This document shows positions 1,888-41,106 of a stretch of DNA of 43,875 nucleotides, in pieces. Origin of the DNA: an archaeon (GTDB taxonomy: Archaea > Nanobdellota > Nanobdellia > Pacearchaeales > GW2011-AR1); the NCBI GenBank assembly GCA_037140195.1, contig JBAXEZ010000002.1:1-43875 (forward strand), written 5' to 3'. How positions within the stretch are numbered: the first letter of the stretch is position 1; every line of letters begins with the position of its first letter. Position numbers and translations under genes: made by a program. The notes beneath the pieces are model-generated. The model had not been told where the DNA came from, made no database searches, and was given only the letters and a program-made list of their open reading frames with translations.

Positions 1888-4662
1888 ATGATAAAACAGA
1901 GGGTAATTTTATTTTTAGTTATTTTAGTTGTTGGAATTTTTTTAGTGGGGGAGGTTAATGCGACCACCACTAACCAACTAATTAGTTCTGCTGCTAATTT
2001 TAATTATATTGTGGGTAATGCTGGTTCTCAGTGTTTTGATATTGGAATGGCTGTAAATTCTTTTTACTTATATACTTTTGTTAATCAATCGGATTCTACC
2101 TCAGGACCACTATATCACTCAGGATTTTACGTTGCTTTGTATAATAGTACTTGGGGGAGGATTGGTGATTCAACTAAGGGGTATTATACGGGTGATTTTT
2201 CTGGGACGTTAGACTTAGGTACTATTTCCTCTTTAAATGTTGGTTATGTGTGTCTCAGTACTAGTGCGTATCGATATTATAATAATGCCTGGCGTTCTGA
2301 CTCCTCAATTGGGTTTCCGTTTACGTTAACGGTTAATGGTTTTGGTGCTGTTGTACCGACTTGTGCAGAGAAATATCCGATTACTCCTCCTTGTGGCACT
2401 TATCCTAATTGTCGTGCATGTACTTGTGCGGATCCTCCAACAAATAATTGTGGCACTATTGGTTCTTGTCATACTTGTTCTTATGGTGCTTGCAGTACTC
2501 CTCCTAATGGTGGAAGTTATTCTGTAGCGCCAAATACTGGTTTATGTTCTGTTGGAACAAATAGTGCTGTGTCTGAATTATTTCATTCAGTTAATGGTGC
2601 GGTACATTTAGATGGATGGACCTGGAATTGTACATCAACAGATAGCACTGCTAGTTGTTCTGCAAATTATGTTTCTCCAGCATGTGTTGATAATGGTGCA
2701 TGTACTGCAGCAGGTACTTGTGTTGGTTCTACTTGTACTACAAATTGCGGTGTTTCTATTTCTGGAACTAAAACTTGCGGTGCTCCTGTTACTTTATCAG
2801 ATGTAGATGGAGATAATTATTATGAGATTCATAATTGTACTGAATTACAAAATATGTCGGCTAATTTAACTGCGAACTATGAATTAGCTAATGATATCAA
2901 CTGTATCAATACTTCTAATCCAAGTTCTGTTCTGTGGCATAGCGGTGCAGGATTTATGCCGATAGGCGGGGAAACTAGTCAGATTGTATTTAATGGTAAT
3001 TTTAAAGGAAATGGATTTACTATTTCTAATTTGTATATTAATCGATCTACAAGAGTTTATTCTGGCTTGTTCGGTTTTACCAATCGTAGTAATATTTCGG
3101 ATGTGGGGTTGGTTAACGTTAATATTACTTCTTATGGTCAAGTTGGTAGTTTGGTGGGATATCAAGCTTGGGGAATAATTGAAAGATCTTATTCTACTGG
3201 AACTTTGGAGGGGTTAGTATACGTTGGAGGGTTGGTCGGAGTTCAAGCAGGAGGGATAATAAATAATTCATATTCGCGGGCAGTTATAACTAATTCAATC
3301 TCTATGAGCAGCTCGGAGTTATATCCTTTTGGTGGGCTGGTTGCAATGCAACAACCCGGAAGTATTTATAATTCATATTCTACTGGAAAGATAAACGTAA
3401 CTTTCGAATCTATAAATCTGCAAGCATTAGGGATTTATTTTAATGGAGGGTTATTGGGCGGGCCAATTTCTAGTTCAGTTGCTAGTTCTTCTTATTGGGA
3501 TATGAATACTTCGAATAGAACTGTTTCTGCAGCAGGAACTGGGAGAAACACAACTCAAATGCAAACGCAGTCTACCTTTTCTGGATGGAATTTTACGAAT
3601 ATCTGGGGAATAAATTCCTCGATTAATGATGGATATCCTTTTTTAAGAGTGCAGGGGTTAACATATGTTCCCTCTTTATCTTCCTCGATGAATTGGACAG
3701 ATCTTAAAGGTGCTTCAATAAACAAAATTGATAAAGAAGACAGCGTGATTTTATTTTTCGGAAATGAAAATAGAAATGTTGAGGTGAACTATATGATTAA
3801 TAAAACTGGTTTGGCAACTGCAGTTTTATCTGGAACAACAAATAAAGGATTTGCTGTATGGAAAGCAAACGAATTAGGTAATTATACCTTTAGTATAACA
3901 AAAGATAATTGGGTAACTAGAGCTATCTCTGGGCCTTTAAATGTTACCAATGTTACTAATAATGCTCTTGCTGTTATCGATTCTATTATTCCAGTTAATG
4001 GGAAGCGTTTTTCAGTTGGTCAATTAATATGGTTTAATCAATCTTCTAGCGATGAAGATGACTTATTGAATTTGCTTTGGAATTTTAAGGATGGAAATAC
4101 TAAGTCAATTGATAATTATTCTTCCTTCGAAAATTCTTTAAATTCTAGTTTTGGAAGTATACAATATAATTATTCTGTTGCGGGGAATTATTTAGTTGAG
4201 CTGACTGCTAAAGAATCAGAAAGAGAGCAAGAAGCGGTTAAGTTTGCTAATATTCATATTCTTCAAACAGGAGTAAACGTTGTTCCAGTTATAACAACTC
4301 CTACAAATGGAGAGGTATACATTTCAGCAAATGATTTATATGTTACTTTTAATGCTTCTCAAACTTATGTAGTTAATTGTACTCTTTGTACTACTGGATG
4401 TTCTGGAGAAAGAGATAATGGGTTTTATAGCGAGGATGGAAAATTAAACTGTACCTATATGCATACTCCTGGAACGCGTATAAATAGCAATTTGTTAGAT
4501 CACAGTTTATTTTTTAATTGGACAACAGGGGACGGGGTTTCTTATTCTGGATATTGGAATGAAACAAATTATTATGGCTCTGTTGAGTTTGTGCATAGAT
4601 ATGCTAATCCCGGGAGATACACTGCTTCTCTGGCTGTTAGTTATCAAGGAGGGATTGTATGA
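1888..4662 (+). CDS. Secreted Cys-rich surface protein with a GLUG-motif domain and C-terminal PKD-like domains
   Basis: 924-aa ORF with signal-like N-terminus MIKQRVILFLVILVVGIFLVGEVNA. Cys-rich block (CVDNGACTAAGTCVGSTCTTNCG). GLUG-type repeats (GLFG, VGSLVGY, GGLVGVQAGGIINNSYS, WGINSSINDGYPFL). PKD-like segments (LLWNFKDGNTKS..YNYSVAGNYLVELTA; FFNWTTGDGVSYSG..HRYANPGRYTASLAVS). Confidence 0.8.
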   Translation: MIKQRVILFLVILVVGIFLVGEVNATTTNQLISSAANFNYIVGNAGSQCFDIGMAVNSFYLYTFVNQSDSTSGPLYHSGFYVALYNSTWGRIGDSTKGYYTGDFSGTLDLGTISSLNVGYVCLSTSAYRYYNNAWRSDSSIGFPFTLTVNGFGAVVPTCAEKYPITPPCGTYPNCRACTCADPPTNNCGTIGSCHTCSYGACSTPPNGGSYSVAPNTGLCSVGTNSAVSELFHSVNGAVHLDGWTWNCTSTDSTASCSANYVSPACVDNGACTAAGTCVGSTCTTNCGVSISGTKTCGAPVTLSDVDGDNYYEIHNCTELQNMSANLTANYELANDINCINTSNPSSVLWHSGAGFMPIGGETSQIVFNGNFKGNGFTISNLYINRSTRVYSGLFGFTNRSNISDVGLVNVNITSYGQVGSLVGYQAWGIIERSYSTGTLEGLVYVGGLVGVQAGGIINNSYSRAVITNSISMSSSELYPFGGLVAMQQPGSIYNSYSTGKINVTFESINLQALGIYFNGGLLGGPISSSVASSSYWDMNTSNRTVSAAGTGRNTTQMQTQSTFSGWNFTNIWGINSSINDGYPFLRVQGLTYVPSLSSSMNWTDLKGASINKIDKEDSVILFFGNENRNVEVNYMINKTGLATAVLSGTTNKGFAVWKANELGNYTFSITKDNWVTRAISGPLNVTNVTNNALAVIDSIIPVNGKRFSVGQLIWFNQSSSDEDDLLNLLWNFKDGNTKSIDNYSSFENSLNSSFGSIQYNYSVAGNYLVELTAKESEREQEAVKFANIHILQTGVNVVPVITTPTNGEVYISANDLYVTFNASQTYVVNCTLCTTGCSGERDNGFYSEDGKLNCTYMHTPGTRINSNLLDHSLFFNWTTGDGVSYSGYWNETNYYGSVEFVHRYANPGRYTASLAVSYQGGIV

Positions 4663-5506: not shown

Positions 5507-8500
5507 ATGAGTATTAAGAGAGGAAGTGGTTTTGTATTTGTTGCGTTAGCTTTATTTGTATTTTCTATGATGTTTACTAGTGCTGTTGTTAGAACTATTA
5601 ATATTCCAAGTAGTGTAGACTTAACTAAGGGGCAGTGCCAAGTTTTTAATTTTATAGATTCCGCTAATGGAAATACCGCATTTACTATGGATGTTAAAAC
5701 GGTAGATATTTCTTGGGCAAGTAATGGATCTATGGTAAGAAGTGGATTCGTTTCTTCTGCATGTTATCAGGGTACTGGAAGAGTTGCAATTGGTACCTTT
5801 ATAGTTGGAACAACTTCTTCAATAAATAACTATAATCCTAGTTCTCCTCCCCAGTCGAATTCTTATACACTCACTAATGCACTTTCCTCCGGAAGCTTAA
5901 GTGTTTGTTATGTTTCTACTTCTGTTAGTTATTGTAGAAATTTAAAGGTGATTTCTATCGATGTAACTGGAGAAACTTCTTATACAGGTCCAACGAGTGG
6001 AAATACTGGCAGTACTTGTGTTGATAATGGTTTATGTACTGCAGCAAATACTTGTAGTGGTTTGACTTGTACTACTAATTGTGGTGCTACTATTTATGGG
6101 GGTAAATACTGTGGGGGCGGAGCTGGAGTCGGAGTCGGTGCTTGTGTTCCTAATAACGCATGTGCAGTAGCTACTTGTTCTTCTACTACTTGTTTAAATA
6201 CATGCAATCTTCCTGTTCAGGGGACAAAAACTGATGGTGTTTGTGCTGGAAATGCAGGTGTTTCTGCATCTACTACGGTTGGTCAATGTTTTACAAGGTG
6301 TAGTGGTATTTCGGTACAGGATGCAAATTTTCCAATGCCACGTATAATCAATTCTCCTAATTCTTGTCCTTTCGGAACTCGATGTGGTTCTTTAATTAAT
6401 ATTCAAAATATGACTCCCAATAAAATATCTTATGATTTTGTTTGGGAATATAATTATGCGGATGGAAGTTCGAATGTAATTTGTCCATGTAATGCAACTA
6501 CAAAAGTTTATGAAAATATAGTCCGTGCTCCAAATGTTACTGGTTCGTATCAATTACCGATAGTAGCTAATGATTTTTCAAATAAAATAGTTTCTAATGT
6601 TAGTTTATATTTAGTTGCATTTAATGATACCTATAGATCCACTGTTAGTAAGGTAAATTATCCGGTTAGCAATCTTGTTAATGTGCAGGTTAATTATCCT
6701 TGTGATAATGGATGTTATCAGTTGGGATTAAATGCACCTGTTTATTTTTCACCTGGGCAAACAGTAGGTACGACTGTTTGGTACAAAACTTGTGTTAAAA
6801 ATGCTAACAATATATGTTTAAAATGGAGTTCTAAAGTTAAATGTACAAATGGTTTAATATTTAATGAGCAGACAAAGAGTTGTGGTGTTAATCCTAGTTT
6901 AAATTATCCTAATTTTAATTGTAATAATGGAGTTTGTAACCACAGTGGTGTTGCTTCCCCTTATAATTCAGTTTTAGATGCAACAAAAAGTTGTGGAATT
7001 TCAGATTTTAGTTGCTTTGCATGTAATAATGGTTTCGTTGCAGATAGTACTCAAACGAAATGTGTAAAGGCAAATTGTAATGACAATTGTAGCTCTACTG
7101 GCGGGTTTTGTACAAGATTAGAGTCTGTTAATAATGGTTATAATAAAGTTCATAATTGTGTTGAGCTACAAAACATGTCAGCTAATTTAACGGCAAACTA
7201 TGAATTAGCTAATGATATCGACTGTTCAGACACTATTAACTGGAATAGTGGTGCGGGGTTTAAGCCAATAGGAAATATTACTAGTCCATTTACTGGAAAT
7301 TTTAATGGAAATAGTTTTATTATTTCTAATTTAAAAATAGATTTGCCATTAAGTAGTAGTTGGGTTGGTTTATTTGGTCGTTTTGCAGGAAATATTTCTA
7401 ATGTAGGATTGATTAATATAAATATTTCTGGTGGTCAACTTGTAGGGGGTTTAGTCGGGCAATCTTCGGGAATAATTTCTAATTCATATACGACTGGAAA
7501 AGTGAATGGATATGTTGGTAATATTGGGGGTTTAGTTGGACAACAAGCAGGAGGAGTGATTTCAAATTCTTATTCTTTAGCGGAAGTTATTTCTGCTAAT
7601 TATGGATGTGGGGGATTAGTAGGTAATCTTAATTCCGGAACAATTAGTAATTCATATTCAGCTGGAAGCGTAAGTTGTTCTTCTAGTATTGGTGGGTTTA
7701 TAGGAATTAAAGACGGGGGAGAAGTCTATAAATCTTTTTATAATAATGAAACTTCGGGATTGAATGATAATGATGGAAGGGGAATTCCAAAAACAACTGT
7801 TCAGATGAAGGATTTAAGTATTTTTTCAACTAATGGTTGGGATTTTGCAAATATATGGGGAATAAGTTCATCCATTAATGATGGATATCTGTATTTAAAA
7901 AAGAGTTTTGGGGGTATGAACATTAATTCTCAATTAGAGTGTTGTACTGGTGAAGTTTGTGTTCAGTGTAGTGAAGGAAGTCATTTTTATAATGGTACCT
8001 GCGTGTCTGATGATTGTACTAATCTTACTGGTTTTGCTCCTCAAGGATTTAATTTCACTGCTGGTGTAAATAAGACTAATAGCTCTTCAGTTATTATGGA
8101 ATGGAATTATGTTTCTGGTGTTGCCGGTGCTTGTCAATGGAATTGCTCCTATGGATATACATTAAATCTTTCTACAAATAATACTTGTCAAGAAATTGTT
8201 AAAGTTAATTGCACTGCTAATGTTAGTAAGTACATATGTTCAAATCTTTCAATTAGTAATGCTTTCAATAATTCTCAATTGGGTTTCTGTGAAGATAGTA
8301 GTAAGAGTTGTTTTGCTTGTAATACAAATGCTACTTTGAGAGATGGCGTATGTGTCGCTAAGACTTGTGCAGATGACGGGTTAATTGATAATGGCATTGA
8401 ATGTGTTGCCAATATAAGTTGCCCAAGTAACAAATGTACTGTCAAAAGAAATGGCGTAGAAAAATGTGTTCCTGATGGATTAAAAATGAAAGTGAATAAC

Positions 8501-8776
8501 ACTGAAATGTATTGCGATGCAGTCATTGACCATAAGCTTAAACCTTTATTGGCAAATAGTGCGGTTTGTAGTTTTAGTTCTCAATGTAAGAGTAATTTGT
8601 GTGCAGTTAATGCTACTGGTACAATGGTTTGTTTAGATGTTCGGTCTCAAGTAAACTTTATTACTAATGCTTTGATCAGTATTAACTGCTTTTTAACTAA
8701 TGGGTTTAGTTGGTCTTCGACTGCGTATTTAACATGTGTTGATAATAAACAGCAGCAAGCAGGGCTTGGTGCGTGA
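5507..8776 (+). CDS. Very large secreted Cys-rich surface protein with a GLUG-motif domain (paralogue of 1888-4662)
   Basis: 1089-aa ORF with a signal-like N-terminus. It shares the CVDNG.CTAA.TC.G.TCTTNCG and HNC.ELQNMSANLTANYELANDI.C modules with the 1888 gene. GLUG repeats (GLFGRFAGNISNVGLININISGGQLVGGLVGQSSG..GGLVGQQAGG..WGISSSINDGYLYL). The C-terminal half is extremely Cys-rich. Confidence 0.8.
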   Translation: MSIKRGSGFVFVALALFVFSMMFTSAVVRTINIPSSVDLTKGQCQVFNFIDSANGNTAFTMDVKTVDISWASNGSMVRSGFVSSACYQGTGRVAIGTFIVGTTSSINNYNPSSPPQSNSYTLTNALSSGSLSVCYVSTSVSYCRNLKVISIDVTGETSYTGPTSGNTGSTCVDNGLCTAANTCSGLTCTTNCGATIYGGKYCGGGAGVGVGACVPNNACAVATCSSTTCLNTCNLPVQGTKTDGVCAGNAGVSASTTVGQCFTRCSGISVQDANFPMPRIINSPNSCPFGTRCGSLINIQNMTPNKISYDFVWEYNYADGSSNVICPCNATTKVYENIVRAPNVTGSYQLPIVANDFSNKIVSNVSLYLVAFNDTYRSTVSKVNYPVSNLVNVQVNYPCDNGCYQLGLNAPVYFSPGQTVGTTVWYKTCVKNANNICLKWSSKVKCTNGLIFNEQTKSCGVNPSLNYPNFNCNNGVCNHSGVASPYNSVLDATKSCGISDFSCFACNNGFVADSTQTKCVKANCNDNCSSTGGFCTRLESVNNGYNKVHNCVELQNMSANLTANYELANDIDCSDTINWNSGAGFKPIGNITSPFTGNFNGNSFIISNLKIDLPLSSSWVGLFGRFAGNISNVGLININISGGQLVGGLVGQSSGIISNSYTTGKVNGYVGNIGGLVGQQAGGVISNSYSLAEVISANYGCGGLVGNLNSGTISNSYSAGSVSCSSSIGGFIGIKDGGEVYKSFYNNETSGLNDNDGRGIPKTTVQMKDLSIFSTNGWDFANIWGISSSINDGYLYLKKSFGGMNINSQLECCTGEVCVQCSEGSHFYNGTCVSDDCTNLTGFAPQGFNFTAGVNKTNSSSVIMEWNYVSGVAGACQWNCSYGYTLNLSTNNTCQEIVKVNCTANVSKYICSNLSISNAFNNSQLGFCEDSSKSCFACNTNATLRDGVCVAKTCADDGLIDNGIECVANISCPSNKCTVKRNGVEKCVPDGLKMKVNNTEMYCDAVIDHKLKPLLANSAVCSFSSQCKSNLCAVNATGTMVCLDVRSQVNFITNALISINCFLTNGFSWSSTAYLTCVDNKQQQAGLGA

Positions 8777-10185
8777 TGAAATATCTCTTTTTGGTATTTC
8801 TAATTTTATTCTCTGCTGGATTTTCTTTAGCTGCGGAAGGTGATTTATGTGATAATTATGGTGAATCTGTTACAGAGGGCAATTATCACTTTTATTGCGA
8901 TTTTAATACAAGTACCTTAAAGCAACAAGGTACTGTTGGAGCAGTATGTATGAATAATTTTGAATGTGTAGATGGTTACAGTTGTCTTTCTGGAACTTGT
9001 ACTGGTTCGTTTAATGAACTGTTAGATAAATATGCTCAAGCAAATGCTTTGGTTTCAGGGTATTGTTTAGATGGGCCTTTTTGTTCAAATATTAGTGGAC
9101 TAGCAAATGCGAATTTATTGACTAATAAAAATTGTTCTTATAGGGGGGCAGGATTCTTTTGTTATCAATGTAAAGACGCAACTTATACTTTCAATGATAC
9201 TCTAGGGGCATGTATTACGGGGATTTGTAGTTCAACACCTGGATGCCTAAGTTCTCGGGTCAATAATTCTGTGAACAATTCTAATTATTGCTCCGGTACT
9301 CAACAATGTTTTTCTTGTGATTCGGATTATGTATGGAATACGACACTGAGTCAGTGCGTTATGAAATCTTGCACTAGTACTCCTGGTTGTTTGAATATGA
9401 CTAATTTAACTAATGGGTTGGTTGTGCCAAGTAGGGTTTGTTCTACTGGAACTTGCTTTAGTTGTATTTCCGGACGTAGTTGGAATAGTAGTTTATCTGC
9501 TTGTGTTTTATCTTCTACTAGCACTACGTCTACTTGGAATACTGTGAGTTTTACCTTTGCCGAGCTTACTGCAGGTACGCATAAACTTTTGAGTGTGGGT
9601 GATAAAGTTCCTTTTGATTTTGCTGGAAGAACCTACTTTTTTGGATTGCTTGGTGCTGATTCAAAAATCTCATTTAAGATTGATCCTACTTTTAATAACC
9701 AAAATTTATATCTTGGCGAATCAAGAGCATTTGATTTAGACAGTGATGGGGCCTATGATCTAAATGTTAGTCTTCTAGGGCTTAGCTCTGGAAAGGCAGA
9801 TGTGAATTTGAAATTTGTCAGTGTATCATATTTAACTACTGATCCTACAGAATCTGAACCTTATTCTCCTGAACCGGAACAAACTCCCGAGCCCTCAAAT
9901 CCAACTCCCGGATTTTTTGAAAAGAATATGTGGGCGTTAATTGTTATTGGCGTTGTTTTTATTGCTTTACTAATTGGATTAATCTTTTATCTTATAAGTA
10001 GGCGGAACGATACTCCTTTACATGGTACTGATCATCCTGCTAGTGCTGGTAATCCTATCGCACCTAATCAACCAAGGCCTCCCGTAATGCCTGGAAATGC
10101 GCCAGGAGCAATACCTGCTGGAGGATATCATCCTTTACCTCCGAGACCTTTTGCTTCACAGAATCCGCAGTTTAGACCAAATTAG
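8776..10185 (+). CDS. Cys-rich type I membrane protein with a proline-rich cytoplasmic tail
   Basis: The ORF track starts at GTG 8773. The ATG at 8776 overlaps the upstream TGA (TGATG). Signal-like N-terminus, more than 20 Cys in the first ~240 aa, TM MWALIVIGVVFIALLIGLIFYLI, then a tail rich in P/N/Q (PNQPRPPVMPGNAPGAIPAGGYHPLPPRPFASQNPQFRPN). Confidence 0.7.
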   Translation: MKYLFLVFLILFSAGFSLAAEGDLCDNYGESVTEGNYHFYCDFNTSTLKQQGTVGAVCMNNFECVDGYSCLSGTCTGSFNELLDKYAQANALVSGYCLDGPFCSNISGLANANLLTNKNCSYRGAGFFCYQCKDATYTFNDTLGACITGICSSTPGCLSSRVNNSVNNSNYCSGTQQCFSCDSDYVWNTTLSQCVMKSCTSTPGCLNMTNLTNGLVVPSRVCSTGTCFSCISGRSWNSSLSACVLSSTSTTSTWNTVSFTFAELTAGTHKLLSVGDKVPFDFAGRTYFFGLLGADSKISFKIDPTFNNQNLYLGESRAFDLDSDGAYDLNVSLLGLSSGKADVNLKFVSVSYLTTDPTESEPYSPEPEQTPEPSNPTPGFFEKNMWALIVIGVVFIALLIGLIFYLISRRNDTPLHGTDHPASAGNPIAPNQPRPPVMPGNAPGAIPAGGYHPLPPRPFASQNPQFRPN

Positions 10186-10187
10186 TT

Positions 10188-10205
10188 ATGAGCCTAAGAG
10201 GAATT
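10188..10205 (-). repeat. 18-nt copy of the 3' acceptor/T-arm end of the tRNA-Arg gene (distal copy)
   Basis: atgagcctaagaggaatt is identical to 10480-10497 and 10346-10363. It starts 3 nt after the stop codon at 10185. Confidence 0.7.
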
Positions 10206-10345
10206 TGCTCGTTGTTTGCTCTTTCATTTTTTACTTTAGAACGTTAATTGAAAGCCAAACAACTCGACCCCTATTAAAAGAGTTTTCCAGCGACTTGAAT
10301 TTATTTTAGAAATAATTATAGATTTCACTTTGTTCAATCTATAAA

Positions 10346-10378
10346 ATGAGCCTAAGAGGAATTGAACCCCTATCTCCA
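10346..10378 (-). repeat. 33-nt copy of the 3' end of tRNA-Arg (variable loop, T-arm, acceptor 3' strand and 1 flanking nt)
   Basis: atgagcctaagaggaattgaacccctatctcca is identical to 10480-10512. Identity stops where the anticodon stem would begin. Confidence 0.8.
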
Positions 10379-10447
10379 TGTATTCGCAAAATGCACTTCG
10401 CAATAAAGTTGAAAATTATTAAAAATTGCTCAGAGCGTTTTCCTCAC

Positions 10448-10463
10448 CGAAACCTAGGTTTCG
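10448..10463. repeat. Perfect 16-nt palindrome CGAAACCTAGGTTTCG
   Basis: Read directly. 10447-10455 (ccgaaacct) also matches the anticodon-arm segment of the neighbouring tRNA gene (10516-10524). Confidence 0.6.
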
Positions 10464-10480
10464 TCCCTTTCTGAAGTTAA

Positions 10481-10552
10481 TGAGCCTAAGAGGAATTGAA
10501 CCCCTATCTCCAGGGCCGAAACCTGGCATTCTATCCGTTAAACTATGGGCCC
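10481..10552 (-). tRNA. tRNA-Arg (anticodon TCG), 72 nt, no encoded CCA
   Basis: Manual cloverleaf on the minus strand: GGGCCCA-TA-GTTT-AACGGATA-GAAT-G-CCAGG-TTTCGGC-CCTGG-AGAT-AGGGG-TTCAATT-CCTCT-TAGGCTC-A. The acceptor stem has one G-U pair and one C-A mismatch. Confidence 0.85.
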
Positions 10553-10628
10553 ATAGTTATTATTTATTCCATTATTTGATTTATTAAACTATCGGTATCT
10601 TTTTCGTCGATGGAAATAAGAGAAGGTT

Positions 10629-10636
10629 TTTAAATA
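10629..10636 (+). promoter_or_regulatory. TATA-box-like element (TTTAAATA) ~24 nt upstream of the ATG at 10656
   Basis: Read directly. It supports ATG 10656 rather than TTG 10650 as the start. Confidence 0.35.
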
Positions 10637-10655
10637 ATCAAATTGTTGATTGGTT

Positions 10656-12122
10656 ATGGTAGAAAAGAAAATTTCTAAGCAAGTAGATCTTAAGGGTATT
10701 AGTGTAAAGAAAGATGAGAATTTTTCTGAGTGGTATAGTGAAGTTGTTCAGAAATGTGAACTTGCTGACATTCGTTCTCCCGTTAAAGGATGTTTAGTCT
10801 TCCAACCCTGGAGCGTTTTATCTATGGAGAAGATGTATAAATATCTTGAAGAAGTTCTACAGAGGAAGAGTCATAAACCTTATTTTTTCCCAACGTTGAT
10901 ACCCGAAGCTAATTTAGTAAAAGAAGCTCAGCATGTTAAAGGATTTTCTCCAGAAGTTTATTGGGTTACACAAGGTGGAGGTGAGAAATTTGAGGAGAGA
11001 TTAGCTCTTAGGCCCACTTCTGAAACTATTATTTACCAAATGTTTGGTTTATGGATTAAAAGTTATAGAGATTTGCCATATAAAATGTATCAAAGAGCAA
11101 ATGTATTTAGATACGAGACTAAAGCTACAAGACCTTTCTTAAGAAGTAGAGAATTTCATTGGATAGAAGCTCATTGTGCACATCCTAGTGAAGAGGCTGG
11201 GATGAAGCAGGTTCATGAAGATATGGAAACTACAGAAGAAGTTTTACATGGTATTTTCGGATTGCCATTTATATTTTTTGAAAGACCTGCATGGGATAAG
11301 TTTCCTGGAGCACATAGAACTTTTGCTGCAGATGTTTTGAATCCAGATGGGAGAGTTGTTCAGCAACCATCTACACATTTATTAAAGCAAGATTTTGCGA
11401 AGGCTTTCGATGTTAAATTTATGGATAAAGATGGGCAAGAGAAATATGCTTGGTTAACTTGTTATGGTCCTGCAGTTTCTAGAATTTTTGCTTCAGTAAT
11501 TATTGTTCATGGGGATGATAAGGGATTAAGATTTCCGTGGAGAATCGCTCCAGTTCAGATAGCAATAGTTCCAATAAAAAATGATGATAAATTAATTGAA
11601 AAAGCTAATAAGTTAAAAGAAAAACTTTCTTCGTTCTCGTCTGTTGAAATTGACTTAAGTGAAAAAAGCGCGGGAGAGAAATTTAATTATTGGGAAATGA
11701 AAGGGGTTCCATTAAGAATTGATTTGGGCTTTAAAGATATTGAAAATGAATCATTAACTGTTTTTAGAAGAGATTTAAACAAGAAGGAATCTATTAAGGA
11801 AAAAGATTTTGTTGCGAATTTACCTAAATTTATAAAAGAATATGATAAAAATTTATTTTCTGAGGCTGATAAGGTTTTTGACAATAGGATTTCGGATGCT
11901 TCTTCTTTGAGCGAGTTGAAGAAATCTATTGACTCGGGGCATGTTGTGAGATGTAATTTCTGCTCTGTTGATAAAGAAGGTACTTCTTGTGCGGAAACTA
12001 TTGAAAAGGAAGCTGGAGCAACAGTTAGGGGAACTAAGTTAATTAGAGAGAAGGCGTCTGGAAAATGTCTGGTTTGTAGTAAAAAAGCAACGGAAGTTGT
12101 TTATGTTGCAAGACAATATTAA
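10656..12122 (+). CDS. proS: Prolyl-tRNA synthetase, archaeal/eukaryal type
   Basis: Class IIa motifs (LRPTSETIIYQMF, FRYE.KATRPFLRSREFHWIEAH, YGPAVSRI). Anticodon-binding region. C-terminal Zn-type domain ending in the typical ..VYVARQY. Confidence 0.93.
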   Translation: MVEKKISKQVDLKGISVKKDENFSEWYSEVVQKCELADIRSPVKGCLVFQPWSVLSMEKMYKYLEEVLQRKSHKPYFFPTLIPEANLVKEAQHVKGFSPEVYWVTQGGGEKFEERLALRPTSETIIYQMFGLWIKSYRDLPYKMYQRANVFRYETKATRPFLRSREFHWIEAHCAHPSEEAGMKQVHEDMETTEEVLHGIFGLPFIFFERPAWDKFPGAHRTFAADVLNPDGRVVQQPSTHLLKQDFAKAFDVKFMDKDGQEKYAWLTCYGPAVSRIFASVIIVHGDDKGLRFPWRIAPVQIAIVPIKNDDKLIEKANKLKEKLSSFSSVEIDLSEKSAGEKFNYWEMKGVPLRIDLGFKDIENESLTVFRRDLNKKESIKEKDFVANLPKFIKEYDKNLFSEADKVFDNRISDASSLSELKKSIDSGHVVRCNFCSVDKEGTSCAETIEKEAGATVRGTKLIREKASGKCLVCSKKATEVVYVARQY

Positions 12123-35032: not shown

Positions 35033-35080
35033 TACATAAATCATTTTAAACCCTAAATTTTTCTAGAATACTGATTGAGG

Positions 35081-36802
35081 ATGATAAGTGAATATTGTAA
35101 ATTTATTGAAGAGAATGGTTTGTCTCCGTTTAATAAACTCAAGACTGCTGTGAATGGTGGTTCGGATTCTATTTACAAGACTAAAGATGGGAAGCTGATT
35201 CATAATAAGTTTTTGACTAAGATTTCTTCAAATTTTGTTTTTTCGGATAGTTCGAATCTTTGGCAGTGTCATTTTTTCACTGAAAATGCTAGTGAGATAA
35301 AAAGAAGACAGGAATTTTTTAGAAATTTGGTTTCCGTTGAAAATGATTTTCTTAAGAATTTAAAAAAGCCACGACAAGTTTGGTCTCCAAAGTATGAAGT
35401 TATTGCAGTTACTGAAAATGAAGATACTTTTGTTAAGCTAAACGAACTTGGATGTACAACAAAGTTTTTGTCTTCGGAATATGATTTGAATGATTTAGAA
35501 AGGTATGATATTGTTCAAGTAATTGATTGCGATGCGTTCCAAAGAGCACTCGAAAGTTTGCCTCAGTCTGTTTTTATTGATAACTTGGATGACGTTTATC
35601 TTGAGAGATACTTAGAGATTTTGTCTTCGTGGAGAGAAAATTTAGAAATTTTGAAACTAAATTCTTCTGATGGAGAAATATTAACTATTGTTCAAGAGTT
35701 GGCTCCGTTATTTCCTTTTTTGGGAGAAGTAAATTCTAAGATAATTAAGCGAGAGGAAGTTGCGGTTATTGTTGAAGAAATAAATAATAAGATTGAAGAG
35801 AAAATAAAAGATGTGACTATTTCTGGCGGTTCTTTGATGAAGATTCTTGGTGAGAAAAAACTCCCCCTAGAATTCCAAAAAGTTATCACTGATGCAATTA
35901 ATGAAAGCGGAGTTCCTGAGTATATTTTTAATTTTACTATCCCCGTTTCTGTAGATGAAAAAGAGCTTGATGATTTGATTAAAAGGCAAAGTGCGAATGA
36001 ATTTACTGATTTAGCAGAAGAAATAAAATCTAAGGCTAAGATTTTGAAGTCTATTCCTGAAAAGTTAAATAGGGTTTCTAGTTTGCTGTTGATTATGGAT
36101 TTTCTTGGAGGGATTTCTAAATATCTTGAGACGGTCAATTCAATTCCTATTGAAAGTAAGGAGTTGTTTATTTCGAATTCTAAAAATTATTTTTTAGATA
36201 ATCCTCAGCCTATTAGTTTTAATCTTTCAGGAGAGTATAGATGTTCCATTTTGACTGGGGCGAATAGCGGTGGAAAGACAACTTTACTTGAACATATTAT
36301 CCAGTTGATTTCTGCTTTCCAGATTGGTTTGCCGGTAAATGGCGAGGTGAATATGCCTATTTTTGAGGAAGTTTATTATTTTGCTAAGAATAAGGGTGCG
36401 GCAAATAAGGGTGCGTTCGAGAATCTTTTAACTCAGATGTCTGAGATTAAACCTGGAAATAGAACTTTAATTTTGGCTGATGAAATTGAAGCAGTAACTG
36501 AACCGGGAGTTGCTGGAAAAATAATTGCTTCTACTGCAGAATATTTCCTGAATAAAAATTGTTTCTTAATTATTGCAACTCACTTAGGTCACGAAATAAA
36601 AGATGTTCTTCCGTTGCATGCTAGAATAGACGGAATTGAAGCTAAGGGGCTTGACGCAGAGTTTAATTTAATCGTTGACCATAATCCGGTAATTGGAAGA
36701 CTAGCAAATTCTACGCCAGAATTAATCGTTGAGAAGATGGCTAATATTCATCATACAGAATATTTTATACATTTGAATGAGAAACTGAAACGGGGAAAGT
36801 AA
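35081..36802 (+). CDS. MutS-family ATPase (MutS2-like, domain V only; no Smr domain)
   Basis: Walker A ILTGANSGGKTTLLEHI, Walker B LILADEIEAVTEP, IIATHLGHE. ATG 35081 is preferred over TTG 35075. Confidence 0.85.
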   Translation: MISEYCKFIEENGLSPFNKLKTAVNGGSDSIYKTKDGKLIHNKFLTKISSNFVFSDSSNLWQCHFFTENASEIKRRQEFFRNLVSVENDFLKNLKKPRQVWSPKYEVIAVTENEDTFVKLNELGCTTKFLSSEYDLNDLERYDIVQVIDCDAFQRALESLPQSVFIDNLDDVYLERYLEILSSWRENLEILKLNSSDGEILTIVQELAPLFPFLGEVNSKIIKREEVAVIVEEINNKIEEKIKDVTISGGSLMKILGEKKLPLEFQKVITDAINESGVPEYIFNFTIPVSVDEKELDDLIKRQSANEFTDLAEEIKSKAKILKSIPEKLNRVSSLLLIMDFLGGISKYLETVNSIPIESKELFISNSKNYFLDNPQPISFNLSGEYRCSILTGANSGGKTTLLEHIIQLISAFQIGLPVNGEVNMPIFEEVYYFAKNKGAANKGAFENLLTQMSEIKPGNRTLILADEIEAVTEPGVAGKIIASTAEYFLNKNCFLIIATHLGHEIKDVLPLHARIDGIEAKGLDAEFNLIVDHNPVIGRLANSTPELIVEKMANIHHTEYFIHLNEKLKRGK

Positions 36803-36803
36803 A

Positions 36804-36841
36804 GTCTACATTTTAATTTATGTCTACAAAAATGTCTACAA
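36804..36841 (+). repeat. GTCTACA-box 1 (three GTCTACA motifs in 38 nt)
   Basis: gtctacattttaatttatgtctacaaaaatgtctacaa. 32 of 38 nt identical to 37795-37832. It overlaps the Fic stop codon. Confidence 0.7.
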
Positions 36842-37780
36842 TTTAGATTTAATCTCTTTTTTGGTGGATTTGTACTCTTTTAATAAAAATTCGATTGTAG
36901 GGCGTAAATTTTTGTTCTTTTCATATTCTTGTAGACAGGCATAATATTCGTGTCTATTTGCTAACTTTATGTCTATTGGTGGAAGGTTGTGCTTTATTAA
37001 TATATTATTTAAAATTATTCTTCCCACTCTTCCGTTTCCGTCTGCAAATGGGTGTATATTTTCAAATTGATTGTGGACAACGGAAGCTAAAATTATTCCC
37101 GGATATTTTGCTTTATTGTTATTGTACCAGTCTACTAAATTTTGTAATAGTCCTAAAACTCTTGATTGTGGTGCTCCTTCATGCACTACTTTTCCAGAAG
37201 AAGACATCACAACTACTTCTTGTCCTGGTTTTCTAAATTCACCTGCAAAATTTTTAGAATTTTTAAAAACTTCTTTATGTATTTCTTTTAATAGCTGGAC
37301 TGATAAATGCTCTTTTGTTTCTCTAATAAACTTTATTGCTTCTTTGACTCCATAAGCTTCGGCTATGTCTTCTTTTGATTTTTCTGGCCATTTATTTTCC
37401 GTTAATATTCCAGAAACTTCTTTCGAGGTAAGTTCGCTTCCTTCTATTGCATTTGTATTATATGTGAAATTTGTGGAGAAGATATCCCATTCTTTTTCAG
37501 ATAAATGTGTAACCTTAAAGTCTGCTTGCAATTCTAATTTTTTAATAAAAGAAAGTTCTTCTTTAGAGAGTTCTTTATCTAATGGGTCCTGAATAATTTT
37601 ATATTTTCCAATTTCTTCTAAAATTAGGGTTTCTAGTTTTTTCTTTCGTTCTTCTAGCATTTCTTTAGATAGGTCAGTTCCAATTAATTTTCTTATTTTG
37701 TGAACTTTCTCTCCTTCTCTAAAAGAATGAGCTAAAAAGTATTTTTTCTTTCCTTTGATGATTTTTTCTTCGATGTACAT
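36836..37780 (-). CDS. fic: Fic/Fido-domain protein (AMPylase family) with an N-terminal inhibitory-helix motif
   Basis: Active-site motif HPFADGNGRVGR (HxFx[D/E]GNGRxxR). TNAIEG matches the [S/T]xxxE[G/N] auto-inhibition motif N-terminal to the core (class II layout). Confidence 0.9.
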   Translation of the reverse strand: MYIEEKIIKGKKKYFLAHSFREGEKVHKIRKLIGTDLSKEMLEERKKKLETLILEEIGKYKIIQDPLDKELSKEELSFIKKLELQADFKVTHLSEKEWDIFSTNFTYNTNAIEGSELTSKEVSGILTENKWPEKSKEDIAEAYGVKEAIKFIRETKEHLSVQLLKEIHKEVFKNSKNFAGEFRKPGQEVVVMSSSGKVVHEGAPQSRVLGLLQNLVDWYNNNKAKYPGIILASVVHNQFENIHPFADGNGRVGRIILNNILIKHNLPPIDIKLANRHEYYACLQEYEKNKNLRPTIEFLLKEYKSTKKEIKSKL

Positions 37781-37794
37781 AATATACTAATAGT

Positions 37795-37832
37795 GTCTAC
37801 ATTTATAAACATTTCTACAAAAATGTCTACAA
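37795..37832 (+). repeat. GTCTACA-box 2, containing the Fic TATA box
   Basis: gtctacatttataaacatttctacaaaaatgtctacaa. TTTATAAA at 37802-37809 is ~25 nt upstream of the Fic ATG (minus strand) and is flanked by the repeat motifs. Confidence 0.7.
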
Positions 37833-37838
37833 GCTAGT

Positions 37839-37913
37839 GAGAAGATGGCGAACATTCATCAGACAGAATATTTTAAATATTTGAATGAGAAGCTGAAACG
37901 GGGAAAGAATTAA
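37839..37913 (+). pseudogene. Displaced, diverged copy of the last 23 codons of the MutS-like gene
   Basis: It translates in frame as EKMANIHQTEYFKYLNEKLKRGKN*, versus EKMANIHHTEYFIHLNEKLKRGK* at the real gene end. Confidence 0.7.
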
Positions 37914-37937
37914 AAAGGTTTAATCATTCGGTCGGAT

Positions 37938-38237
37938 ATGAAAAAAGATACATTTCTTAAAAAGTTTCCGAGAAAATATACAACCGAAAATTTTCCAGTA
38001 AAAAATGGAGTCTCTTTTTCATCTCTTCCTTCTAAAGTTAGGTTGGAAATAATTATTCATGTTACTGCAAGTATATTTTTTAATTTATTTCTGATATTTT
38101 TTGGTATATACTTTATTTTTATAGACTTATTGCAGGGATGGGTGGGTATTGTTGCAGGTCTTATTCTATTATCGCTTATATTGTTAGCTATTAAACTAAA
38201 AAAGTGGAATAGCATTTTAAATACTATAAACTGGTAA
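37938..38237 (+). CDS. Small membrane protein (two TM segments)
   Basis: 99 aa. Hydrophobic stretches IIIHVTASIFFNLFLIFFGIYFIFI and WVGIVAGLILLSLILLAI. Confidence 0.5.
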   Translation: MKKDTFLKKFPRKYTTENFPVKNGVSFSSLPSKVRLEIIIHVTASIFFNLFLIFFGIYFIFIDLLQGWVGIVAGLILLSLILLAIKLKKWNSILNTINW

Positions 38238-38284
38238 TTTCTCAAATAGCATAGCTTTATAATGCCATATTTCTGTAAATAAAC

Positions 38285-38719
38285 ATGGGAGACTTTAGAT
38301 CATTCGAACGTGGAGACGACAGAGGAGGTCGTTCTAGCGGAGGCTTTGGCGGACGAAGTGGGGGAAGAAGTTTCGGAGGAAGTAGAGGCGGATACGGAAG
38401 AGATTCTGGAAGTCGAGATAGAAGAGAAATGCCAATGTGTGATGCAGTTTGTGCAAAATGTGGTAAAAATTGTAAAGTTCCATTTAAACCAACAGGTGAT
38501 AAACCAGTTTATTGCAGTGATTGTTTTGGAGCTCAAAGAGGAGAATCAAGAGGCTCAAGTGCTGGTGGAAGTTCTTCAGGTTCAGGTATTACGTCCGAGC
38601 AATTTCAACAACTTAATTCAAAGTTAGATCAAATTTTAGTTATCTTAAATTCCTTAGAAATGATTGATGACGAAGAAGATGAAGATGCTGACGAAGTCGA
38701 AGAAGAAAAAGCAGCTTAA
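38285..38719 (+). CDS. RGG-rich / CxxC-x17-CxxC zinc-ribbon / acidic-tail protein
   Basis: N-terminus GDDRGGRSSGGFGGRSGGRSFGGSRGGYGRDSGSRDRR. CAKC-(17 aa incl. FKPTGDKPVY)-CSDC counted exactly. C-terminus DDEEDEDADEVEEEKAA. Confidence 0.8.
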   Translation: MGDFRSFERGDDRGGRSSGGFGGRSGGRSFGGSRGGYGRDSGSRDRREMPMCDAVCAKCGKNCKVPFKPTGDKPVYCSDCFGAQRGESRGSSAGGSSSGSGITSEQFQQLNSKLDQILVILNSLEMIDDEEDEDADEVEEEKAA

Positions 38720-38786
38720 TTCTAGTTTAAATGTTTAGTTTAATAATTTTCTAGAGATATTCTCTTAAATTTTGTATATTCTTATG

Positions 38787-38800
38787 TAACTTTAAAGTTA
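38787..38800. promoter_or_regulatory. Perfect 14-nt palindrome TAACTTTAAAGTTA ~45 nt upstream of the paralogue operon
   Basis: Read directly. A TATA-like ttttttaaatcc and gcttttatagc follow before the ATG at 38846. Confidence 0.3.
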
Positions 38801-38845
38801 TGACAGTTTCAAAAGTTTTTTAAATCCTGCTTTTATAGCTAGTTT

Positions 38846-39595
38846 ATGGGAAGCAAACTAATTCAGTATAAGGGCGATTTTGTAACTTGTTCCAAAAAGA
38901 TTGCATATGCTGGGCAAAGAATTGCAACGACAAGAGACGGAATGCTGGATGCATTTAGGCGAAAAGCAACCTTTCAAGATAAGATGACTCATGCTTCTAG
39001 TTGTTGGTATTCAGAAGGAACTGCTAGAATTGATGGCGTAAATTATTGGTGTTCGGCAGAATATGCTCCGACAACTCGTTACACTTACAAAGCTCGAGAA
39101 GAAAATGAAATGGGCAATTTCTTAGCATTAACTCCTGATTTAAATGTCGGAAATAAACCGGCATTAGAAGTTATTCCTCGAATTGCAGAGGAAGATAAAA
39201 ACAAACTTCCAGAAAGAAGGAGGGTTCTGATTCCAGAAATACAGAGAAATTTTTCAGTAACTTCTACTGCTTTCGTGTATATTGACATTGCTAGATTTCT
39301 GGCAAGAGATTTAACTCTCGCACAAGACTATGGTCGTCTTTTATCGGAGTATTGCGGAATGAAATCTATTATGTTTTATCAACTTTCTGGACGGAAGGAT
39401 GTTGCAGCAGGAATTTCACTTGCTAGGTTGGCAGCTGCAGATTCTTTTCTTTTTGATGGTCATAATAGTGATTTTTTTGATAATGAAAATTTTATGTTCG
39501 GAAAGCAAAAAGATATTGTGCCAGAAGTTATAACGCCGACAGCAGAACAATCTGCAATTATTGAAATGGTGTTAAAAAATAGGCCTAAAAAATAA
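38846..39595 (+). CDS. Unknown-family protein, paralogue 1 of 3 (249 aa)
   Basis: Shares blocks with the next two genes: FV.C, IAT.R.GM, EGTA.I.GV.YWC..EYAPTT, ALE.IP.IAEEDK.K.PE.RR.LIP, DIARFLARD..LA.DY, FYQ, AAG, IIE..L.NRPKK. Confidence 0.75.
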   Translation: MGSKLIQYKGDFVTCSKKIAYAGQRIATTRDGMLDAFRRKATFQDKMTHASSCWYSEGTARIDGVNYWCSAEYAPTTRYTYKAREENEMGNFLALTPDLNVGNKPALEVIPRIAEEDKNKLPERRRVLIPEIQRNFSVTSTAFVYIDIARFLARDLTLAQDYGRLLSEYCGMKSIMFYQLSGRKDVAAGISLARLAAADSFLFDGHNSDFFDNENFMFGKQKDIVPEVITPTAEQSAIIEMVLKNRPKK

Positions 39596-39596
39596 A

Positions 39597-40352
39597 ATGG
39601 AAAATAAATTAACTAAGTATAATGGAAATTTTGTAAAGTGTTCAAAAAAGATTGCAAAGGCGGGTGAGATAATAGCTACTGCTCGTGAGGGGATGATTGA
39701 GAGGATTGCGAGACGAAAAACTTCTCGGTATGAATCTAAGGGTTGTTGGCATTCGGAGGGCACTGCAAATATTGATGGAGTGACTTATTGGTGTTTAGCA
39801 GAATATGCTCCTACAACTCAAAATATTAAAAGAACATACGCTGCCAACTTTGAAGGGTTATATCTTCCTTTAATAAGTAATGTAAAAATAAGGGTAGAAT
39901 CTGCATTGGAACTTATTCCGAGAATAGCTGCGGAAGATAAAAATAAACTTCCTGAGCAAAGAAGAGTTTTAATTCCCGAGATGCAAGACACTTTTATAAT
40001 AGATTCAGCAGAGTTTGGTAATATAGACATTGCTAGATTTTTAGCTAGAGATGCAACACTTGCGAAAGATTATAGTCATCTTTTAGATATTTTTTATGGT
40101 ACAAAGTTTACTTCTTTTTATCAACTTGCAGTAGATGAAAATTCTGCAGCAGGAGTATTTTTGGGAGTAGTTGGAGATGTATCTCATTTTACAGTTTATG
40201 GTACTGATGGAGATTTTTCAGATAGTAATGGGCGTATGTTTGGAACGACTGCCAAATCGCAGGTTATTGGTTTAGAAAAAAAAGCTATAAAACCTACACC
40301 TAAACAATTAGCAATTATAGAGCAATTGCTTATGAATCGTCCTAAAAAATAA
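39597..40352 (+). CDS. Unknown-family protein, paralogue 2 of 3 (251 aa)
   Basis: Same conserved blocks. Starts 1 nt after the upstream stop. Confidence 0.75.
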   Translation: MENKLTKYNGNFVKCSKKIAKAGEIIATAREGMIERIARRKTSRYESKGCWHSEGTANIDGVTYWCLAEYAPTTQNIKRTYAANFEGLYLPLISNVKIRVESALELIPRIAAEDKNKLPEQRRVLIPEMQDTFIIDSAEFGNIDIARFLARDATLAKDYSHLLDIFYGTKFTSFYQLAVDENSAAGVFLGVVGDVSHFTVYGTDGDFSDSNGRMFGTTAKSQVIGLEKKAIKPTPKQLAIIEQLLMNRPKK

Positions 40353-40353
40353 A

Positions 40354-41106
40354 ATGGAAAATAAATTAAATAGATACGTTGGAAATTTTGTAAGTTGTCT
40401 TAATCAAATTACTGAAGCTGGAGAAAGAATGGCGACAGCTAGGGAGGCTATGATTCGTAGATTTTCAACTGGAAGGATCAACTTATGGCAGGATGGTTTC
40501 TGCCCTGAAGGAACTGCTAGAATCAATGGGGTTACTTATTGGTGTTTGGGAGAATATGCTCCGACAACACAAAATGTTATGCAAACGTTATGCGCAAATG
40601 GTTCTGGTAAGCTTTTAGAGTTAGTAGATACTGTGAGAATTGGAAATGACTTGGCTTTGGAAGTTATCCCGAAAATTGCGGAAGAGGATAAATTCAAACG
40701 TCCAGAAGACAGAAGAATTTTAATTCCTTCTAGGCAGCAAGAATTTTTTGCAATAGATCCCTCTAATCTAGGTGAGGTGGATATTGCTAGATTCTTAGCA
40801 AGAGATTCAGATCTCGCGCAAGATTATGGTAAACTATTGCGTGATAATTGCGGCGTAAAACACTTTAATTTTTATCAACCTTCTGGAAACGTAAATGTTG
40901 CCGCAGGATTCTGGTTTCCGGGAGTACAGCACAATAGTAGTTCTTGTTTTCATGGTAGCTGTTCAGAGCTTTCTTCAGCTATTGGTGCTGCATATGGTAT
41001 CTCTACAACCTCTAAAGAGGCGAGTGCTGATATTGAAGAGATAATCTCTCCGGAGGAGACATCGAATATTATTGAAATGTTATTGAAAAATAGGCCGAAA
41101 AAATAA
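40354..41106 (+). CDS. Unknown-family protein, paralogue 3 of 3 (250 aa)
   Basis: Same conserved blocks. Starts 1 nt after the upstream stop. Confidence 0.75.
   Translation: MENKLNRYVGNFVSCLNQITEAGERMATAREAMIRRFSTGRINLWQDGFCPEGTARINGVTYWCLGEYAPTTQNVMQTLCANGSGKLLELVDTVRIGNDLALEVIPKIAEEDKFKRPEDRRILIPSRQQEFFAIDPSNLGEVDIARFLARDSDLAQDYGKLLRDNCGVKHFNFYQPSGNVNVAAGFWFPGVQHNSSSCFHGSCSELSSAIGAAYGISTTSKEASADIEEIISPEETSNIIEMLLKNRPKK

Follow-up and report, generated by a model that had tools for sequence, protein, structure and literature searches.

We describe three tandem paralogous genes in a 43,875-nt stretch of contig JBAXEZ010000002.1 (assembly GCA_037140195.1; hereafter the window), from an archaeon of the Pacearchaeales lineage GW2011-AR1. 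The encoded proteins are paralogs with the predicted C-type lectin (CLec) fold of AvpA, the scaffold of the variable proteins of diversity-generating retroelements (DGRs) in DPANN archaea and Nanoarchaeota, and the segment in which they are hypervariable is the ligand-binding variable region (VR) position of that fold. The trio is not under DGR diversification in this genome segment, and its differing loops appear fixed. We consider it likely that these AvpA-like genes have been orphaned from a DGR and now represent three fixed binding specificities.

Three tightly spaced paralogs with a hypervariable segment

The three genes (Table 1) start with ATG, end with TAA and leave one base between the stop codon and the next ATG at both junctions, which share 21 identical nucleotides (CTAAAAAATAAAATGGAAAAT). 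An earlier note on this DNA, made from the sequence alone, had described consecutive genes of 249, 251 and 250 aa with single-nucleotide spacing; its coordinates proved exact, and a hidden Markov model (HMM) of the family confirmed the paralogy, recovering each copy far above chance (E 1e-75 to 1e-80) and giving no score at all to any other open reading frame (ORF) of the window. The conserved blocks listed in that note are likewise all present in the trio alignment (FV.C, EGTA, YWC..EYAPTT, ALE.IP.IA.EDK, DIARFLARD, FYQ, AAG and IIE..L.NRPKK). Overall pairwise identity is 46–50%, made up of 51–56% in the core (columns 1–189), 19–32% in the segment that follows the AAG motif, 11–23% in the linker and 59–76% in the C-terminal helix and tail, so that the hypervariable region proposed between AAG and the C-terminal block is borne out. 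Since amino acid identity of ~50% saturates synonymous sites, region-wise identity and codon tests were used in place of dN/dS.

Two further properties had been read from the sequence. The three conserved cysteines, C15, C53 and C69, are indeed kept in every member of the trio, but across a 19-member subfamily only the cysteine of the YWC block is nearly invariant. The reported absence of membrane-spanning segments and signal peptides was borne out: the maximum 19-residue Kyte-Doolittle value is 1.21, the N-termini are not hydrophobic, and no signal peptide or anchor is detectable.

Placement in the AvpA-like CLec family

Searches against Pfam, NCBIfam, PHROGs and PADLOC returned no meaningful match to the trio proteins (none at E<=0.1 in PHROGs or PADLOC), a PDB sequence search with a three-sequence profile gave only noise, and a Pfam scan of 73 family members produced just two spurious single matches. 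A word-indexed search of 5.8 billion proteins yielded 19 clusters whose source names read only 'hypothetical protein', with no functional names among them, and an exhaustive comparison of the profile with 1.84 billion representatives gave 89 proteins, almost all of them ~250 aa long or shorter fragments. AvpA-like genes carry the label 'hypothetical' everywhere because neither Pfam nor NCBIfam has a model for them, which leaves them invisible to routine annotation.

A profile built from the 73 family members matched one solved structure among PDB sequences, 5ioo (E 2.8e-4), in an alignment that covers only the C-terminal half of the protein (chain residues 142–254 of 5ioo_A, VR included). The structure is that of AvpA, which serves a DGR of DUSEL4 Nanoarchaeota as its variable protein (Handa et al. 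2016, PMC5006420; Paul et al. 2015, PMC4372165). A first AlphaFold2 (AF2) model, made from 19 sequences, was discarded as poor (pLDDT 67); the model used here comes from the 73-sequence alignment (pLDDT 92.8, pTM 0.85). Comparison of this model with the PDB by Foldseek placed 5ioo_A at the top (probability 1.00, TMq 0.59/TMt 0.69, 232 aligned columns) as the one match with E<=0.1, followed by weak partial matches to canonical C-type lectins, and gave no match of the formylglycine-generating enzyme (FGE) type. The BFVD viral fold library held no significant match to the model and IMG/VR no relative of the trio, and a viral origin was rejected for these two reasons.

In AvpA (256 aa) the CLec fold spans residues 8–209, the VR is internal at 181–203, the β5 strand is encoded by the initiation of mutagenic homing (IMH) sequence and a helical extension of 46 residues forms the C-terminus; the protein is a monomer both in solution and in the crystal (PMC5006420). 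The window proteins resemble it in their length of ~250 aa, in their single CLec domain of the AvpA subclass, in an internal variable segment near residues 180–220 that ends in an FG(V)-type β5 strand, in a helical C-terminal extension and in the lack of a detected signal peptide. Their layout comprises a CLec core at residues ~5–189, a loop and β-strand at ~190–219, and a C-terminal helix with a basic NRPKK tail; directly after the variable segment stand MFGK, MFGT or AYGI, and then a helix at 233–244 in the model. They differ from AvpA in sequence (~9% identity), in a C-terminal extension cut down to one helix plus the NRPKK tail, in their number, with three in tandem as against a single target in each cassette, and in having no template repeat (TR), reverse transcriptase (RT), IMH or GC-rich hairpin. 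The general CLec fold, with its variable ligand-binding surface, extends beyond this subclass; the trio is set apart by inserts and a VR conformation of the AvpA type.

The earlier note could not place the family and put it forward as a candidate for an undescribed system. Profile and structure together give it a place beside AvpA, and the confident Foldseek match to the characterised 5ioo_A undoes the claim of novelty: the AvpA-like CLec family was described in 2015–2016 (PMC4372165, PMC5006420), so the trio is not an undescribed system, and a false lead is removed. What is new is modest, namely that the genes stand in tandem and that their products end in a distinct C-terminal tail. DGR-free AvpA-like proteins were already known from the Woesearchaeota GW2011_AR3 and AR17 (KHO51710 etc.; Table 3 of PMC5006420), which by their description share with the trio a DPANN AvpA-like fold, the lack of a DGR and the presence of several paralogs per genome; no report mentions a tandem arrangement or an NRPKK tail in them. 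In DUSEL4 Nanoarchaeota, likewise, DGR targets that are remote or partial and lack a local RT are documented (PMC4372165). The partial DGRs of DUSEL4 OTU1, variable-protein genes that have been read as fossils or remote targets, are like the trio in standing without a local RT, but keep cis elements and adenine-patterned VR/TR differences, and the trio has neither.

The hypervariable segment is the VR position of the fold

The segment in which the trio diverges occupies the position of the ligand-binding VR of the CLec fold, as three independent mappings agree. Profile alignment sets the VR of AvpA on those columns of the family in which the trio is hypervariable; an adenine-tolerant repeat scan finds VR/TR pairs in three loci of the family, L010 (encoding member P0006), L016 (P0101) and L020 (P0078); and in a codon alignment the L010 TR has its AAY codons at variable columns of the trio. 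The earlier suggestion of a diversified triplication with a specificity-determining element thus stands, with the element now mapped onto the variable region of a CLec fold.

The C-terminal tail behaves in the opposite way. Its sequence IIEMLLKNRPKK is identical in gene 3 and the relatives P0004 and P0005. Between gene 3 and P0004/P0005, which belong to a different organism, the remainder of the protein is just ~50% identical. Such identity implies either strong constraint, with a possible role of the tail in docking or sorting, or gene conversion.

DGR-linked relatives of the trio

Nanoarchaeal DGRs are marked by the IMH TGGGGT, the corresponding IMH* TGGAAT and, within the target gene, a hairpin with a GRA loop (PMC4372165). 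In our family these features occur on L010, whose P0006 is 46–52% identical to the window proteins and 46–50% to gene 1: its VR (residues ~190–219) ends in TGGGGT, a TR that ends in TGGAAT lies ~450 bp downstream, and an RT ORF follows the TR, as one also does in L016 and L020. P0006 has the core motifs EGTARI, YWC, APTT, DIARFLARD, FYQ and AAG in common with the trio and carries its VR in equal columns; it differs by its VR/TR pair, its IMH/IMH*, its GC-rich hairpin, an RT that lies immediately downstream, and a C-terminal extension that is longer and has two helices. The motif (T)GGGGT stands at the 3′ end of the VR (nt 633–675) in 7/7 DGR-type relatives (P0006, P0101, P0078, P0014–P0016 and the copy on L021), and in DGR-linked genes the VR and the next 75 nt reach a GC content of 0.55–0.61 within genes of 0.39–0.46.

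The L010 locus (8001–9423) is an apparently complete archaeal DGR cassette, with the VR at ~8575–8660 and the TR at ~9016–9105, mismatches between them at adenines only, a GCGC-GAA-GCGC hairpin, and an RT whose N-terminus begins at ~9163 and which is broken off where the contig stops. Immediately upstream is a gene with a Bro-N domain. Further cassettes, built on the distant members P0101 (L016 8001–10795) and P0078 (L020 1588–3120), have GC-rich GAA-loop hairpins. In L016 the RT, with its YVDD motif, is split over two frames (~9762–10403 and ~10265–10792), by a frameshift or an assembly error.

Other relatives combine target-like sequences with no DGR nearby. The Candidatus Woesearchaeota metagenome-assembled genome (MAG) SRP050083_co1_89 holds three dispersed family copies (on L021, L022 and L023); the fetched flanks of these copies contain no TR or RT, and a cross-locus TR search among the three contigs found nothing. 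An IMH-like GGGGT closes the VR in all Woesearchaeota-type copies examined, that of L021 included, P0014–P0016 share a common non-A skeleton and a GC-rich VR, and P0016 adds a 7-bp GAA-loop hairpin. The copies of this MAG are candidates for remote DGR targets in trans. Variants within the 90% clusters of P0014–P0016 have their differences in the N-terminal half, where they are probably chimeras of paralogs, and none in the VR; because the differences lie outside the VR, these variants are uninformative as a control for VR diversification.

P0005 (L001 9250–9999) presents a further combination. Its VR-equivalent (..SNNSDFAGNNMYF..) has Asn codons AAT or AAC where the TR of L010 has AAY, and by this comparison looks like an unmutated, template-like sequence, though the gene has no IMH and does have the NRPKK tail.

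No active DGR at the trio

An adenine-tolerant scan that detects the VR/TR pairs of L010, L016 and L020 found no TR for the trio in the whole 43.9-kb window on either strand. Besides paralog-to-paralog matches it returned one site, near position 14438, which paired with the variable segments of both gene 1 and gene 2; this candidate was rejected as trivial because it is a run coding for a lysine tail and is 68% A. No RT was found either, with no RVT_1 domain in Pfam scans of 30 window ORFs and no match at E<=10 when the RTs of L010 and L016 were compared by phmmer with six-frame ORFs of the window.

The variable segments themselves tell the same story. Compared with the L010 template, the true target P0006 has mismatches at 58% of A sites and 2% of non-A sites, and P0014–P0016 at 50–54% and 16–22%, respectively; in the trio the figures are 54–69% and 50–56%, so that no adenine bias is left. 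The IMH motif (T)GGGGT is absent from the 3′ end of the VR-equivalent in all three genes, whose GC content is 0.33–0.45 in the VR-equivalents (0.33 in gene 1) and 0.32–0.40 downstream, below the 0.55–0.61 of the DGR-linked genes, whose downstream stretch by itself reaches 0.56–0.61. Genes 1 and 2 have no GC-rich GRA-loop hairpin, and gene 3 has just a weak 5-bp repeat, which lies at nt 693 of the gene, next to the positions at which the hairpins of P0101 and P0078 occur (691 and 692), and may be a relic or a chance occurrence. Finally, the three VR-equivalents are only 43–56% identical in DNA, vary in 64/90 columns and have no common non-A skeleton; at such low identity they cannot all be targets of one TR.

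A weak codon footprint

The 18 central codons of each VR-equivalent are rich in NNT codons relative to an expectation computed from amino acid composition and local codon usage (17/18 against 11.7 expected in gene 1, 14/18 against 10.6 in gene 2 and 14/18 against 9.5 in gene 3). The residues K, E, Q, M and W, which mutagenesis of AAY codons cannot reach, are depleted in the VR-equivalents (2/54 against 148/696 elsewhere, p=7e-4). We regard this weak footprint as suggestive only of a past DGR origin of the loop sequences, because the windows were chosen post hoc and selection on a binding site could mimic the pattern.

Origin of the trio and alternative explanations

On this evidence the three genes are probably DGR-orphaned, fossil, ligand-binding paralogs. 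An ancestral DGR target would have been duplicated in tandem and would have lost its cis elements, the region that encodes IMH and hairpin in relatives being AT-rich here and showing neither; the three genes, presumably co-transcribed as one tightly coupled operon, would now supply three fixed specificities. By analogy with the proposal made for AvpA, the ligand is probably a surface or host-cell molecule. A bolder version of this history, which we put forward tentatively and ourselves find doubtful, is a 'frozen repertoire', in which the loops would have been written by DGR adenine mutagenesis of AAT codons and then fixed by tandem duplication as three germline specificities, with the extension that encodes IMH and hairpin replaced by the NRPKK tail; this new and strongly conserved tail could then be a docking or sorting signal.

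Several points weigh against the orphaned-target reading. Sequence identity of the trio model to AvpA is ~9% in the structural alignment, and of the three motifs published for AvpA relatives (GxxVVVYAH in β3, HPxxxPFxG in insert 4 and RFxGV in β5) only RFxGV is mapped onto the trio, in a degenerate form that keeps FG or YG and has lost R and V. Ligand binding would follow from the predicted fold, as it does for AvpA, and a surface role is hypothetical because no signal peptide or anchor is detectable. The windows of both codon and residue tests were picked after seeing the data, and selection for residues of the binding-site type (D, N, S, Y, G, F) could yield the same pattern. The RT and TR searches span 43.9 kb of genome, and an RT and TR may lie elsewhere. 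The trio is identical in four assemblies (0/2261 nt mismatches) and differs at one position outside the VR in a fifth, but this invariance is weak evidence because these 4–5 assemblies may share the same or closely related samples and a consensus assembly hides minority variants.

The alternative that comes nearest holds that this AvpA-like lineage was never mutagenised by a DGR, possibly like the ancestors of DGR targets, and that its loops diverged, once duplicated, by point mutation under diversifying selection. Woesearchaeota do have AvpA-like proteins without a DGR, the trio bears no nucleotide trace of templated mutagenesis, its long branches imply old duplications, and a binding-site composition could imitate the AAY-accessible set; yet NNT codons are more frequent in all three genes than amino acid composition and codon usage would predict, the trio is nested among clades with DGR-linked or IMH-bearing members, and P0005, which shares the NRPKK tail, has the DGR-linked P0006/8/10 clade as its sister and has retained Asn codons like those of the TR. 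We judge this history unlikely. A rival of another kind, in which the three proteins are obligate subunits of one hetero-oligomer rather than independent binders, would make sense of the 1-nt spacing and identical junctions, which suggest translational coupling and equal stoichiometry, and of a conserved C-terminal helix and tail that could serve assembly; AvpA, however, is monomeric in solution and crystal, and relatives exist as single genes or pairs, so three different subunits are not required. We judge such an assembly improbable.

Decidedly improbable, too, is that the trio consists of active targets on which an RT and TR from another part of the genome work in trans, as in the multi-target DGRs of Nanoarchaeota. 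Close relatives are true targets, remote or partial targets without RT are on record for DUSEL4 Nanoarchaeota, the VR-equivalents are enriched in NNT codons and AAY-accessible residues, and the weak GRA-loop repeat of gene 3 sits at the right distance. Against this stand the missing (T)GGGGT, which all seven DGR-type relatives examined possess, a VR and downstream sequence that are not GC-rich, the lack of adenine bias towards the related TR, the lack of a common non-A skeleton at 43–56% DNA identity with 64/90 columns varying, and the identical sequence in four assemblies. Scarcely credible, and already largely refuted, is a novel effector, immunity or specificity system working with the neighbouring RGG zinc-finger protein, the β-CASP nuclease or both, as the earlier note had suggested from a tight operon of diversified paralogs. 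The silence of Pfam, NCBIfam, PHROGs and PADLOC would fit a novel system; against it, the family belongs with AvpA by both fold and profile, domains of a toxin-like or nuclease kind are absent, and an effector or immunity module finds no support in PADLOC. A link with the two neighbours fails as well: neither is conserved beside any homolog, no neighbour is shared across ten homolog contexts, and the small ORF upstream of the L001 genes is unrelated to the zinc-finger protein. We therefore regard both neighbours as incidental.

Distribution and phylogeny of the family

Relatives of the trio occur as single genes or pairs, and the ORF upstream of the copy on L004 is not a paralog. The subgroup with the NRPKK tail is confined to three places: this organism, a tandem pair in a second MAG (L001–L003; proteins MEI7718422/23 of L001), which comes from the same samples as the window organism, and one short contig. 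A metagenome scan for the subgroup re-found only the known contig; among the genome-collection scans, A1 had no match and A4 one genome, and the alignment of A2 was too diverse for use. In a tree built from the core only, the trio makes up a separate clade on long branches, with P0004 and P0007 as its sister, and P0005 is sister to the DGR-linked clade of P0006/8/10.

Genomic context

The coordinates of the trio and its elements are collected in Table 1. The A/T-rich element upstream of gene 1 resembles a TATA box, and by eye could be an archaeal promoter from which the operon would be transcribed almost without a leader.

Table 1. Features of the tandem AvpA-like genes (window coordinates)
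Feature	Position	Strand	Basis
A/T-rich TATA-like element TTTTTTAAAT	38816–38825	+	21–30 nt 5′ of gene 1 ATG; read by eye
Gene 1, AvpA-like CLec-fold protein, 249 aa	38846–39595	+	ORF; family HMM E 2.6e-75; AF2 model pLDDT 92.8
Gene 1 VR-equivalent, residues 190–219	39413–39502	+	Identity trough; codon-for-codon alignment with L010 VR/TR; AvpA VR profile alignment
Gene 1 conserved C-terminal helix and basic tail, ..AIIEMVLKNRPKK	39542–39592	+	59–76% trio identity; model helix 233–244
Gene 2, AvpA-like CLec-fold paralog, 251 aa	39597–40352	+	ORF; family HMM E 4.8e-80; 50% identity with gene 1
Gene 2 VR-equivalent, residues 187–216	40155–40244	+	Same mapping as gene 1
Gene 2 conserved C-terminal helix and basic tail	40299–40349	+	Sequence alignment
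Gene 3, AvpA-like CLec-fold paralog, 250 aa	40354–41106	+	ORF; family HMM E 2.1e-78; 47% identity with gene 1
Gene 3 VR-equivalent, residues 186–215	40909–40998	+	Same mapping as gene 1
Weak GRA-loop inverted repeat in gene 3, TCTCC-GGA-GGAGA	41047–41059	+	Stem 5 bp, 60% GC; no IMH upstream
Gene 3 conserved C-terminal helix and basic tail	41053–41103	+	Sequence alignment

The window is otherwise ordinary small-archaeon chromosomal DNA, with genes for ProRS, deoxyhypusine synthase, POR, ADP-forming acetyl-CoA synthetase and a DisA-like DAC, among others. Immediate neighbours of the trio include the β-CASP nuclease, seen in the Pfam scan of window ORFs, and the RGG protein (38285–38719), whose 144 aa comprise a low-complexity N-terminal region rich in RGG/SGG, a zinc finger of the treble-clef type (CxxC-x17-CxxC; PF23477, TIGR04272) and an acidic C-terminus, and which is not conserved beside family members.

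A Fic/DOC gene on the reverse strand (36836–37780) is flanked by direct repeats of ~113 nt (36730–36846 and 37795–37907; 81–91% identical), the left one being the 3′ end of a MutS2-like ORF (35075–36802). The repeats look like the mark of a target-duplicating, att-like insertion; no integrase is present. In a Nanoarchaeota MAG (L018/L019 6932–8681) the distant family member P0086 likewise has a Fic gene as its immediate upstream neighbour, in divergent orientation, and the occurrence of Fic beside an AvpA-like gene at these two unrelated loci (window 36836–41106; L018/L019) may be coincidence. Elsewhere in the window, two paralogous ORFs of 924 and 1089 aa (1888–4662 and 5507–8776) with PKD and GLUG motifs have several repeated modules in common that are 82–87% identical, and probably encode surface or adhesin-like proteins. 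In the MAG with the tandem pair, an RtcB RNA ligase gene (L001 4786–7707) is split by an intein (PF14890) and adjoins an Archease gene.

Implications

Ultra-small archaea are thought to depend on attachment to hosts. Within one subfamily of AvpA-like proteins we find a graded series, which leads from full DGR cassettes (L010), through dispersed Woesearchaeota copies that have the IMH and no TR in the fetched flanks, one of them with a GRA-loop hairpin, to tandem copies without TR and IMH and with a distinct C-terminal tail (the window and L001). This series provides material on how DGR targets arise, are orphaned and become fixed in these organisms, and a family HMM built from the sequences would improve both the annotation of DPANN genomes and the prediction of DGR targets. 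If the trio is indeed a frozen repertoire, it would document how, in a DPANN symbiont, a somatic-like diversification driven by a retroelement gave way to a hard-wired multigene family.

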